A stretch of DNA of 64,000 nt from a candidate division NC10 bacterium CSP1-5 (GTDB lineage: Bacteria > Methylomirabilota > Methylomirabilia > Methylomirabilales > CSP1-5), in contig LDXR01000006.1 of assembly GCA_001443495.1 (NCBI GenBank), positions 11,059-75,058 on the forward strand, in the 5' to 3' direction. Below the pieces are notes generated by a model that worked only from the letters and a program-made list of their open reading frames with translations, had not been told where the DNA came from and did no database searches. Shown here one piece after another: positions 58,237-61,835 of the stretch (its first letter is position 1; every line of letters starts with the position of its first letter). Both the position numbers and the translations under genes were made by a program.

Positions 58237-58293
58237 GGACAACTTGTCATGGCCCTGTGGAAGGGTCGATTTCGAGGGCAGTCGGAAAGGGCA

Positions 58294-58728
58294 ATGATGG
58301 ACGACCGTGACGAATTGACGCAACTCGAAACAGTGGCACTCACCGATGTTGGCGAAGATGCTGGGCTGCTACACGAAACGAACGGAGGTAGACGGCGTTA
58401 TCGCCGGTGGGTCATCCGGGGCGGCCTGAGCGGGTGCATCGACGCGGCGCATGGGGCCTCGTTCGTCAATATCAGCCTGGGCGGGGCCCTGATCGAGCAC
58501 TCGAGCATGATCCGGCCAGGGAGCATCGCGTTCCTGACCGTTGCCTTCCAAGGGCAAGAGGCGGGGCTGAAGTGCCGGGTGGTCCGCTCAGAGGTCCATC
58601 GCTACGGCGTCAGGCCTACCGAGGACAGACACCTCGTCTATCGGTCTGGTCTTGAGTTCGTGGACACCTCCGAGGCGTCCCTGCGAGTCATCGACAAAAC
58701 CATCGAATCCTTGAAAGTCGCGGCCTAG
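58294..58728 (+). CDS. PilZ-domain protein (c-di-GMP receptor candidate)
   Basis: RxxxR (RRRYRR) and N-x-S-x-x-G (NISLGG) PilZ motifs. ATG 58294/58297 follow SD GGAAAGGG; ORF-table ATG 58249 would be almost leaderless. Confidence 0.72.
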   Translation: MMDDRDELTQLETVALTDVGEDAGLLHETNGGRRRYRRWVIRGGLSGCIDAAHGASFVNISLGGALIEHSSMIRPGSIAFLTVAFQGQEAGLKCRVVRSEVHRYGVRPTEDRHLVYRSGLEFVDTSEASLRVIDKTIESLKVAA

Positions 58729-58730
58729 TC

Positions 58731-59273
58731 TTAGGCGACCGGTTTACATAAGCCGATTGTGCGAAGAGCGGGCCTCTCTCTCACCGAGTCGGACCAATGC
58801 GTCCAACTGAGCCACAGCCCGAGGACCGCCAGGATCAGGAAACCCTCCCACATGACAGAGTGGGCGAAGTTGAAGGCGGCCGGATTATGCGCGCCGAGGT
58901 AGAACAGGTGCGCGAGGCGCGTCAGGTTGAGCGCAATCAAGAGGGGCACGCCGACGACCAGTCCGACGAGCTTTCGTCGCCAGCGTCCGGGATAGGCCAG
59001 GATGGCCGTCGTGAGGAAGGCAACCGGCAAGAATCCGGTGCAGCGGTAGTAGATCTCGTAGGCAAAGCCGCTCGGGTGGCTGACCACGGTCGCCACCCGG
59101 GTCGCCTCCATTCCTAACCAGTGAAGCAATGCGAGCGTCGCCCGTGCCGTCCACATCGTCACAGGGGCAAGGGGCGCCCCGAGAACGTCCTCACGATACG
59201 TGAGCAGGGCGACGCCCGCAAATCCCACCATCACCGCGACGAAACGGAGATTCAGTTGCCTGGTCACGTGCAT
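58731..59273 (-). CDS. Minimal exosortase/archaeosortase-family transpeptidase (180 aa)
   Basis: Polytopic membrane protein with candidate Cys (YYRCTG), Arg (LNLTRLAH) and His (FAHSVMWEG) in the order seen in exosortases. SD AGGAG sits in the 15-nt gap after the S8 gene. Confidence 0.75.
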   Translation of the reverse strand: MHVTRQLNLRFVAVMVGFAGVALLTYREDVLGAPLAPVTMWTARATLALLHWLGMEATRVATVVSHPSGFAYEIYYRCTGFLPVAFLTTAILAYPGRWRRKLVGLVVGVPLLIALNLTRLAHLFYLGAHNPAAFNFAHSVMWEGFLILAVLGLWLSWTHWSDSVRERPALRTIGLCKPVA

Positions 59274-59288
59274 GGGATACTCCTGAGC

Positions 59289-61112
59289 CTACTCCTCCGC
59301 CAGCCGCGACCGCCTGCGAAGTACCCCGAACAGCAGAACAGAGACCACGAGAACAGCAACCCCGATCAGCGACAGGTCAGGCACTCGCACAGGTGCGGAG
59401 GCGCTGCTCCCGTCGGCCCCCGCCGTTACCGTCGTGTTCCCTTGCGATTCGCCCCGCACCGTGACCTGTGCCCTCCCGCTCGAATCGGTCACAGCAGAGG
59501 CCGGCGAGACCGAGGCCACGCTGGGATTCGCGGTGCTGAATGTGACCGCCTTACCCGCCTGCGGCGCCGCGCCCAACGTGACCGTCGCCCTGGCGGTCGT
59601 CGTTTCGCCCTGGTCGAGCTCCCTGTCGGGGTCCAGCACCAGACTCACGGCTAACTGGGGCCCTCCTCGGACCGCGCTCAGCAGACCTGCGCCACAGGGC
59701 TGGGGACACTGGCTCGATGTCCTGGGAAGGGCGTTGTTTCGGAGCTCGGCGGTGAGCTGCGCCGGGGTCAGCGTGGGGTTCTGGGCGAGATAGAGGGCGG
59801 CCACGCCCGCCACGTGGGGGGTCGCCATCGACGTGCCGTTATAGCGAGCGTAGGTTCCAGCGTTGGGGTGAACCATGCTGAGCACCCCGTCGTTGTTGCC
59901 GTCCCCATCGTCGTCCCGCTGCACGTCCCCGCCGGGTGCCATGATCTCGACTGTCGCGCCGAAATTCGAGTACCGGGTCACCAGGTGGCCGCGAGCGTCG
60001 CTCGCTGCCACGGTGATCACATTGTCGCAGCTCGCTGGGAAGACCTGGGATGCATCCACCGCATCATTCCCGGCGGCCACCACGACTGCGGCGCCCGCCC
60101 CTACCGCATCATTGATCGCCGCCTGGGTGGACGGGGAGGCCGAGCAAGGATTGCCGGGCGGGGTACCGAGGCTCATGTTGATCACCCTGGCCGGCGTCGC
60201 ATTTGCCGGCACGCCGGGGACGGCGAGGCCTGCGGCCCACCGGATGCCGTCGTTGATGTCGGCGATGGTGCCCCCGCATTTCCCCAGGACGCGCACGGCC
60301 TGAACCCGCACGGTCCAATTGGCGCCTGCGACCCCGACGCCGTTGTCGGTTCTTCCGACGCCGATGGTCCCGGCCACATGGGTCCCATGCCAGCTAGCGG
60401 GTTGGGCAGGATCGCCCGGGAAGCACTCGTCCGCGGCGACGGCATCGCCGGGGTCCGTGGGATCGTTGTCGCGACCGCTTCCGTCGTTGGCGATCGCCGG
60501 GTCGCTGATCATGTCAAAGCCGGCGATCAGGTTCGGGGATCCCGCGATGTCGGGATGGTTCGGGAGGACCCCGGTATCGATGACCGCCACAACGATGCTA
60601 CTGCTTCCCGTGGTCGTGTCCCAGGCTCTCGGGAGGCTGATCCCGCCCGGAGACTGGCCGGTGCCGGTGCCGTTGTCGCGGTAGTGCCACTGCTCAGGAA
60701 AACGGGGATCGTTCGGGGTTCTCACGATGCGCAATATATAGTTCGGTTGCGCATACTGGACATTGGGGTCTGCGCGTAGTTGCCGGAGGACCTCCAGTGT
60801 GCGATCCCGCGCCTGGGTGGGCGAGAGGGTCTTTAGGGCGGTCGGCGGGATGCGGTAGAGCAGCTCGCCGCCGGATGTCACGCGCTTGCCGTCCTCGACT
60901 CCGAACCGCTTGAGGTCTGCGGGACCAAGGGTCCGGGCCGGCTTCATCTTCACGATGACCTCTCCAGGGACGAACTGGGCCTGAGGGGGGATGGTCCTGC
61001 GCTCAAGAAGCCTGCGGACCTCCTCCGGCGTGCGTTCCTGGGCCTCTCCAGGGAGAGTGCCGTAGGCCAAGCTTGCCAGGGCAACCATGACTGCCAGTAG
61101 AGAGGTGCTCAT
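59289..61112 (-). CDS. Secreted subtilisin-like S8 serine protease with prodomain, Ig-like domain and PEP-CTERM-like sorting tail
   Basis: Signal peptide; prodomain ending AQPNYILRI; triad VAVIDTGV / HGTHVAGTIG / GTSMATPHVAG; Ig-like repeat; tail VPDLS plus hydrophobic helix plus RRRSR. Confidence 0.92.
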   Translation of the reverse strand: MSTSLLAVMVALASLAYGTLPGEAQERTPEEVRRLLERRTIPPQAQFVPGEVIVKMKPARTLGPADLKRFGVEDGKRVTSGGELLYRIPPTALKTLSPTQARDRTLEVLRQLRADPNVQYAQPNYILRIVRTPNDPRFPEQWHYRDNGTGTGQSPGGISLPRAWDTTTGSSSIVVAVIDTGVLPNHPDIAGSPNLIAGFDMISDPAIANDGSGRDNDPTDPGDAVAADECFPGDPAQPASWHGTHVAGTIGVGRTDNGVGVAGANWTVRVQAVRVLGKCGGTIADINDGIRWAAGLAVPGVPANATPARVINMSLGTPPGNPCSASPSTQAAINDAVGAGAAVVVAAGNDAVDASQVFPASCDNVITVAASDARGHLVTRYSNFGATVEIMAPGGDVQRDDDGDGNNDGVLSMVHPNAGTYARYNGTSMATPHVAGVAALYLAQNPTLTPAQLTAELRNNALPRTSSQCPQPCGAGLLSAVRGGPQLAVSLVLDPDRELDQGETTTARATVTLGAAPQAGKAVTFSTANPSVASVSPASAVTDSSGRAQVTVRGESQGNTTVTAGADGSSASAPVRVPDLSLIGVAVLVVSVLLFGVLRRRSRLAEE

Positions 61113-61190
61113 TGCTTCCTCCTTCCGCTCTTGATAAGCTATTCGATGCCGAGGCCGCTTTTGATTGCGGTAGATATTGAGGGCAAGGTA

Positions 61191-61835
61191 ATGACTATTT
61201 TGCTCGGTCTCGTGCTTCCAGGCATCCTCCTCGGGACCTCACCGGTGTCATCGCCTCGGTTTGTCCCCGGCGAGGTCCTCGTCAAGTTCGTTCCTGGATC
61301 GGACGGAGGCGCCGCCGTCATGCAAGCCAGTCGCGTCAGCCCTCCGGACCTAGGCGCGTTGGCGCAGGTGATCGACCGCTTACAGGCCAAGGTCAATATC
61401 CCTCTCAGGGCAAAGCAGGTGACGGGCGGCCAATGGGTCCTGTTGTCTGTCGATGGGGAAAAGCTGACAGATCAACTTCTCGAGAAACTCCGCGGGCGGG
61501 AAAGCGTCGCGGAGGTCCAACCCAGCGCCGGGAAACCCGAAGCCCATGTGAGCGTCTCGTTGCCGAAAAAGCTCGTCATCAGGTTCTCACCGGGCAGCGC
61601 AGAATCCCAGGCGGTCGCACGAAAGCTGGCAGATCCCAACGACATGGGCTTTTCTCGCCTCCTCCGCGATCTGGAAAAGGCGGTTGGCCTACCCTTACAG
61701 GGTGAGGTCGATGAAGACGCCACGGCTGTTGTGCAGATCGATCTTGCGGCCCTCACCCTGAAGCTCTCCGAGCAACTCAAGGCCCTGGCCGATGTCGAGT
61801 CGGCCCAGCCGAACTACATCTTGAGGATTCAGTAA
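61191..61835 (+). CDS. Secreted standalone protein made of two subtilisin-prodomain-like modules
   Basis: Signal peptide, then FVPGEVLVKF... and a second module ending LADVESAQPNYILRIQ-stop. This mirrors the start (FVPGEVIVKM) and end (AQPNYILRI) of the neighbouring protease's prodomain. Confidence 0.6.
   Translation: MTILLGLVLPGILLGTSPVSSPRFVPGEVLVKFVPGSDGGAAVMQASRVSPPDLGALAQVIDRLQAKVNIPLRAKQVTGGQWVLLSVDGEKLTDQLLEKLRGRESVAEVQPSAGKPEAHVSVSLPKKLVIRFSPGSAESQAVARKLADPNDMGFSRLLRDLEKAVGLPLQGEVDEDATAVVQIDLAALTLKLSEQLKALADVESAQPNYILRIQ

Follow-up and report, generated by a model that had tools for sequence, protein, structure and literature searches.

An exosortase H-like enzyme encoded beside an S8 protease with a VPDLS-type C-terminal tail: a likely dedicated sorting cassette in Methylomirabilota and Desulfobacterota

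Most exosortase systems handle dozens of substrates and belong to large exopolysaccharide (EPS) loci. The experimental basis for their chemistry comes from archaeosortase A, together with genetics on cyanoexosortase B, and the literature describes as unresolved, for bacterial exosortases, both what the cargo is attached to and how it gets past the outer membrane. Already established are the small subtype exosortase H (XrtH), sorting systems dedicated to a single target, and proteases as sorted cargo; S8/S53 proteases, for instance, are listed among the cargo of GlyGly-CTERM systems. According to the criteria of Haft, consecutive or nearby genes for enzyme and target are the mark of a dedicated one-to-one sorting system, and in the rhombosortase survey the target usually lay beside the enzyme in single-target genomes and did so in no multi-target genome. 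Here we describe a locus on contig LDXR01000006.1 of the candidate division NC10 bacterium CSP1-5, within a stretch of 64 kb that was analysed as a whole and that we call the window. In contrast to the large EPS-associated systems, it encodes an XrtH-like enzyme of 180 residues and one adjacent cargo, an S8 (subtilisin-family) protease precursor of 607 residues whose C-terminal tail carries a seven-residue motif. From sequence, we interpret the two genes as a sorting cassette in which the enzyme is most likely dedicated to the adjacent protease, with a probability of roughly 0.65.

Both genes lie on the minus strand, the protease gene at 59289..61112 and the enzyme gene at 58731..59273, separated by a 15-nt intergenic spacer, gctcAGGAGtatccc (59274..59288, minus strand). 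The junction, gag-TAG-gctcAGGAGtatccc-ATG, was read directly and includes an AGGAG Shine-Dalgarno site for the enzyme gene. The open reading frames (ORFs), their family matches and the junction sequence thus bear out the layout reported in a first-pass annotation of the window, which had placed a subtilase and a small polytopic protein 15 nt apart. Exact copies of both ORFs are deposited in NCBI, on up to 22 contigs; the protease is identical to KRT70170.1 (candidate division NC10 bacterium CSP1-5), publicly recorded as a generic S8/S53 peptidase, and the enzyme is identical to KRT70169.1, annotated 'hypothetical protein'. Scanning the sequence between the two genes found no promoter-like and no terminator-like site, and the promoter scan as a whole returned no promoter-like sites and two terminator-like hits, at chance level and outside the cassette. 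This layout suggests that the two genes are co-transcribed. Called-gene spacing in related loci (L001, L004 and L006-L009) is similarly short, at 8-28 nt.

The pairing recurs far from the window. In 29/29 related loci, which come from Methylomirabilota, Desulfobacterota and one metagenome-assembled genome (MAG) labelled Hyphomicrobiales and have varied flanking genes, a tail-bearing gene lies directly upstream of the XrtH-like gene. Surveys that started from the enzyme gave the same arrangement, with an S8 protease immediately upstream in 6/6 metagenome contexts whose other genes differed, and upstream in 12/12 reference-genome loci (Methylomirabilota, Thermodesulfobacteriota/Desulfobacterales and one Hyphomicrobiales-labelled MAG). 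A five-member side clade, with an enzyme ~37% identical to that of the window, has an S8 plus Big_1 protein directly upstream that terminates in V-L-VPDLS, a helix and a basic cluster; the tail is retained where the protease body is at 32-38% identity and the enzyme at 37%.

Tails were surveyed in the window and in the 29 loci with flanks of no more than 10 kb each, amounting to 380,428 bases and 3,167 ORFs. A relaxed scan of this set for P-[TDES]-[LPVMI] ahead of a helix and basic cluster matched, among real genes, these proteases only; whatever else matched was a shadow ORF on the antisense strand or the C-terminus of the enzyme itself. Among the stop-to-stop ORFs that reach 100 residues in the six frames of the 64-kb window, the protease alone ends in a basic cluster preceded by a hydrophobic helix. 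Querying with Big_1 plus tail returned short proteins only, and the two that were checked proved to be protease 3' ends cut by contig starts; on longer contigs, the exosortase gene came next in both cases. That search, which was not exhaustive, found no S8-less protein bearing the tail. A 45-residue tail-only profile query retrieved just two short fragments and also missed the known orthologs.

The protease C-terminus reads ...SAPVRVPDLSLIGVAVLVVSVLLFGVLRRRSRLAEE (translation of 59289-61112). Its last part, residues 575-607 (59292..59390, minus strand, from the translated sequence), has the tripartite architecture of a sorting signal at the extreme C-terminus: V-R-V-P-D-L-S, with the VPDLS codons at 59370-59384 on the minus strand, then the 17-residue hydrophobic helix LIGVAVLVVSVLLFGVL, then the basic cluster RRRSR. 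Among 17 aligned ortholog tails, V-x-V-P-D-x-S is invariant and free of gaps in the motif region, and an Arg is invariant exactly 17 mostly hydrophobic residues after the motif Ser. Methylomirabilota tails read VPDLSLIG, in which the P, L and G positions resemble IPTLxxWG; in Desulfobacterota tails the Gly is lost, and the Trp of IPTLxxWG is absent across the whole clade. Aligned to the IPTL-CTERM model TIGR04174, the window tail falls in register over model positions 2-25 and scores 14.4 bits (cut-off 20.5); it lacks both the score and the IPTLxxWG signature of that family. Three of ten ortholog tails match the same model at 13-15 bits and the others give no match; the tails that do match score equally weakly on unrelated helix-plus-basic models. 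The PEP_CTERM model reaches at most 12.9 bits on the tails (cut-off 16), and on the helix portion only, and a Pfam scan of the tails gave no match. Identity as a PEP-CTERM, VPDSG-CTERM or LPXTG signal was rejected, the matches being sub-threshold or confined to the helix. The first-pass description of the tail as tripartite and non-canonical is therefore upheld by conservation in 17 tails that, one helix-only match aside, stay below curated CTERM cut-offs, and its phrase that PEP is replaced by PDL seems to us a reasonable one. A separate ortholog sequence (L026, 2-496) has the tail VRVPDLALPAA, where Ala replaces the motif Ser.

The downstream protein is a member of the exosortase/archaeosortase superfamily. 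It scores 55.3 bits on the superfamily signature TIGR04178 (cut-off 23) and 39 bits on Pfam PF09721 (cut-off 25.7), and among curated subtypes it fits XrtH (NCBIfam TIGR04177) best, with 101 bits (cut-off 86). A search with exosortase subtype models had been proposed as a check, and the three matches rule out an unrelated membrane family. Of the first-pass idea of a one-enzyme, one-substrate module, the pairing stands, at 29/29 loci; the enzyme itself is not of a new kind, as it passes the model of a named subtype (101 vs 86 bits). The accompanying remark that this is one of the smallest exosortase-like proteins was overstated, given that curated profiles for mini-subtypes span 150-168 residues (XrtM 150, ArtE 153, ArtB 156, XrtH 158, XrtR 160, XrtX and XrtY 168); 180 residues is an ordinary size for a mini-exosortase of an already known subtype.

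The putative catalytic residues follow the order expected of exosortases, as the first reading had seen: Cys78 in YYRCTG (codon 59040-59042), Arg119 in NLTR (58917-58919) and His138 in FAHS (58860-58862), all on the minus strand and all in a polytopic membrane protein. The three are invariant among 16 relatives. Across 45 more remote representatives, neither the Cys nor the Arg ever changes, nor does an Asn, and conservation of the His is at least 90%. The hydropathy profile has four strongly hydrophobic segments (residues ~7-27, 76-96, 99-125 and 136-160), with Cys78 at the start of a helix, Arg119 at the end of the next and His138 in the following loop. A cytoplasmic GRWRRK loop (residues 96-101) fixes the orientation such that all three residues would face the outer side of the membrane, and they are accordingly predicted to lie on the same face where the cargo motif would sit. 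An AlphaFold model is confident over this catalytic core, with block means of 83-93 in predicted local distance difference test (pLDDT) score over residues 81-160. Solved structures offered no match to the enzyme by sequence or fold (best fold E 2.7, TM-score <0.35), and structural modelling contributed the helix layout only.

Membership of the protease-linked enzymes in XrtH is marginal. Ten verified examples score 68-101 bits on the XrtH model, with the exception of the L022 enzyme, which has no XrtH match at E <1e-8; the clade thus straddles the cut-off. An exhaustive profile search recovered 1,996 enzyme representatives at E <=1e-10, with a smooth score fall-off, and in ten of them sampled down the ranking XrtH is the best or near-best curated family at only 50-85 bits. 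Scores of 50-101 bits on a 158-position model point to peripheral rather than core members. A plasmid tblastn search for a canonical XrtH/IPTL-CTERM locus found none, and the comparison with XrtH/IPTL-CTERM is one of model scores and descriptions rather than with a canonical locus. XrtH is characterised by an IPTLxxWG-type cognate signal, and the adjacent protease tail is not of that type. JGI and NCBI name relatives 'exosortase H (IPTLxxWG-CTERM-specific)', and on this clade, including the relatives of the window gene at 58731-59273, the label may claim more specificity than is supported. Some XrtH-like proteins exceed the usual 170-200 residues, namely P0141 (637 residues), P0227 (355), P0233 (401) and P0249 (351), and in P0227 an S8 motif (AVRVLGKCGGTI) precedes the XrtH part. 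These over-long proteins may reflect run-on gene calling or be genuine cargo-enzyme fusions.

The cargo has the full layout of a secreted subtilase. From N- to C-terminus it comprises a hydrophobic signal-like segment, a prodomain, the catalytic domain, a Big_1 immunoglobulin-like (Ig-like) domain and the tail. The N-terminus, MSTSLLAVMVALASLAYG, is judged signal-like from its hydrophobicity and from ortholog alignments that begin at residue 1. The prodomain is of Fervidolysin type (residues ~42-129, Pfam E 1.3e-06) and terminates in AQPNYILRIV. The catalytic domain, residues 171-476, matches Pfam Peptidase_S8 (PF00082) with E 4.5e-53 and 180.9 bits (cut-off 21.8) and has an intact triad of Asp179 (DTG), His242 (HGTH) and Ser428 (GTSMA), which together make the protein an S8 protease. 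The Big_1 match (residues 501-575, E 2.5e-08) reaches 34.3 bits, just below the Pfam cut-off of 34.9.

A third gene, at 61191..61835 on the plus strand and divergent from the protease gene, encodes a predicted secreted protein of ~214 residues with tandem prodomain-like modules. Its start is most likely ATG 61191, behind a GAGGG Shine-Dalgarno-like site; starting instead from a TTG at 61131, the protein would have 234 residues. After a hydrophobic N-terminus the product consists of two tandem modules and ends in AQPNYILRIQ, which resembles the AQPNYILRIV of the protease prodomain. Pfam gives a Fervidolysin_NPro-like match (E 1.8e-06), BLASTP aligns the protein to protease residues 46-58 and 105-129, and hhalign relates module 1 to module 2 (97.3%, E 2e-11) and the two modules to the protease prodomain (94% and 97%). 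The gene is kept in the same divergent position in 11 loci. Free-standing subtilase prodomains act as inhibitors or folding chaperones, and because of this the tandem-prodomain protein is possibly an inhibitor or chaperone of the adjacent protease. In loci of the Methylomirabilota type, we regard the gene as probably a third member of the cassette.

What the sequences show directly are the domains, the conserved motif, the residues that never vary and the adjacency of the genes; the mechanism that we build on these is a proposal, as follows. The N-terminal signal would direct the protease through the Sec pathway and out across the inner membrane, and its C-terminal helix would then tether it in that membrane with RRRSR on the cytoplasmic side and VPDLS at the outer face. 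There the enzyme, presumably acting as an integral-membrane cysteine transpeptidase or protease with Cys78, Arg119 and His138 as its site, would recognise V-x-V-P-D-x-S and remove the helix together with the basic tail. The protease would next be either released or, by an attachment chemistry that we can only infer, transferred to an acceptor for display on the cell envelope. In Methylomirabilota-type loci, the tandem-prodomain protein probably keeps the protease folded or inhibited until sorting takes place.

Consecutive enzyme and target genes at 29/29 loci are what the criteria of Haft describe, and such uniform adjacency, read with the rule from the rhombosortase survey, argues for a dedicated pair. 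It could instead be that the XrtH-like enzyme sorts several scattered IPTL-type proteins, an S-layer protein for example, and that the protease is merely a linked substrate or a trimming helper. Consistent with such a many-to-one system, the window enzyme exceeds the cut-off of a model publicly described as IPTLxxWG-CTERM-specific, and the Methylomirabilota tail VPDLSLIG keeps register with IPTLxxWG at P, L and G and aligns to positions 2-25 of IPTL-CTERM. Against it, multi-target genomes in the rhombosortase survey never had an adjacent target, whereas adjacency here is 29/29; no second tail-bearing gene occurs in the 380 kb around the pairs; in one MAG the enzyme is present twice, each time with a separate protease gene; and the clade, at 68-101 bits on the 158-position XrtH model, is peripheral to the curated family. 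We therefore consider a general sorter unlikely, though it deserves serious weight. Far less probable in our estimate is that the tail is a permanent, uncleaved membrane anchor and that the small protein owes its linkage to something else, such as partnering or regulating the protease or being its substrate. The tail does lie below every curated signal cut-off save for one generic helix-only match, several tails score equally weakly on many unrelated helix-plus-basic models, and cleavage is something we infer; however, nothing in a simple anchor would call for V-x-V-P-D-x-S to be invariant, at a fixed 17 residues from an equally invariant Arg, in lineages with protease bodies just 32% identical, and a partner that keeps the exosortase Cys, Arg and His invariant argues for catalytic activity. 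That the pairing is a coincidence or an artefact of ORF calling is refuted by strong family matches, exact NCBI deposits on up to 22 contigs and 29 conserved loci, and we give it almost no credence.

Several points nevertheless weigh against a dedicated cassette that sorts its protease. We know of no experimental evidence of cleavage in any XrtH system. Nothing in the cassette obviously serves passage through the outer membrane, which leaves surface display a conjecture. Curated CTERM models place no tail above cut-off except by one generic helix-only match, and compared with the IPTL-CTERM signal expected of an XrtH cargo the adjacent tail scores 13-15 bits against 20.5, has no Trp and has often lost the Gly. 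The motif starts where the Big_1 match ends, so the Ig-like domain may have V-x-V as its final strand, which would leave P-D-x-S as the specific part. The tandem-prodomain gene was not found in Desulfobacterales-type loci. The window covers 64 kb of the CSP1-5 genome, and other substrates may accordingly lie elsewhere in it. Finally, in Methylomirabilis lanthanidiphila, of the same phylum, the S-layer protein has a predicted canonical IPTL-CTERM domain (PMC8671808, supplementary figure 6). The C-terminal tail of that S-layer protein is the only part of it never detected by proteomics (PMC8671808), which fits removal of the tail in vivo within the phylum.

A broader proposal is that the protease-linked enzymes form an uncurated exosortase subfamily of their own, with a VPDLS-CTERM signal and mislabelled as XrtH, and that together with the tandem-prodomain protein they make up a self-contained three-gene protease cassette across Methylomirabilota and Desulfobacterota. 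We offer this tentatively and would place it a little short of an even chance. What is absent from the curated libraries and from the literature searched is the VPDLS-type signal, which is the new part of the system, as well as the strict pairing with one S8 plus Big_1 protease family across a large XrtH-like radiation, and the tandem-prodomain partner.

The cassette lies outside any EPS locus. Its neighbours in the window are an RND efflux pump, MTHFR, a PilZ protein and a Mg-chelatase-like ATPase. The PilZ-domain gene (58249-58728, plus strand, Pfam 6.3e-07) converges on the exosortase gene, with the two stop codons 2 nt apart; this position is kept only in close relatives (L004, L010, L011, L027, L028), so the gene probably does not belong to the cassette. 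In Desulfobacterota-type loci the XrtH-like gene is directly followed by one for an unannotated protein of ~215 residues (L007 10694-11356; L015-L021; L026 1030-1674) that is 67-91% identical to the L007 and L026 copies, shows transglutaminase-like or vasohibin hints at sub-threshold level only, and is absent from the window and other Methylomirabilota loci. In the branch whose proteases diverge most, a gene of the Exo_endo_phos (endonuclease/exonuclease/phosphatase) family stands beside the pair, on opposite sides in L006 (6840-7886) and L008 (3363-4412), and a 736-residue TIG/CARDB protein that does not carry the sorting tail is encoded just downstream in L006 (10624-12834). MAG MFD09964.bin.2.252 has two protease and XrtH-like pairs on separate contigs (L020 and L021); the protease frame in L020 looks broken, possibly by a frameshift, pseudogene formation or assembly error.

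If the dedicated cassette is real, one enzyme with one assayable cargo would provide a minimal system for reconstituting bacterial exosortase chemistry. The locus also calls for a correction of annotation, in that an IPTLxxWG label has been given to a clade whose visible partner does not have this motif, while the signal of the partner proteases goes unannotated. In ecological terms, our observations suggest that lineages of soil and sediment, both NC10/Rokubacteria-type and sulfate-reducing, may place a protease on or near the envelope.

Among described systems, XrtH/IPTL-CTERM (TIGR04177/TIGR04174) is similar in its small enzyme, its Cys/Arg/His core, its tripartite tail and a P-x-L core in the signal; it differs in that the cargo here is always one adjacent S8 protease. 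PEP-CTERM/XrtA (EpsH) belongs to the same superfamily, its signal is likewise built from a motif, a helix and a basic cluster, and VPDLS resembles the consensus core of PEP-CTERM, V-P-E-P-S. XrtA, however, is much larger, with eight predicted helices, typically serves at least 20 targets per genome and is EPS-associated, whereas the enzyme here has 180 residues and no EPS genes at its locus; the tails do not reach the PEP-CTERM model, and XrtA-type models are not the best matches for the enzyme.

In gene arrangement, the closest parallels are the dedicated systems GlyGly-CTERM/rhombosortase, JDVT-CTERM/intramembrane protease and Gram-negative sortase/LPXTG, which share with this cassette consecutive, co-oriented enzyme and target genes and a sporadic distribution. 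Their enzymes belong to unrelated families (rhomboid, Rce1-like and sortase), and for the cassette here a single target is seen within the 380 kb surveyed. The cargo has a counterpart in VesB of Vibrio cholerae, which is described as a secreted serine protease whose C-terminal tripartite signal is processed by a membrane enzyme, rhombosortase, and which is reported to remain cell-surface associated. VesB differs in being of the trypsin-like family, in its motif and in the family of its sorting enzyme, and rhombosortase serves several V. cholerae targets. For the enzyme itself, the comparison is with a distant homolog, archaeosortase A (ArtA) of the PGF-CTERM system in Haloferax volcanii. ArtA is archaeal and larger (profile length 271), with many substrates and lipid-anchored cargo; its conserved residues are reported, in a 2018 Mol Microbiol study, to be critical for catalytic activity, and among experimental models for how the enzyme of this cassette may work, ArtA is the best.

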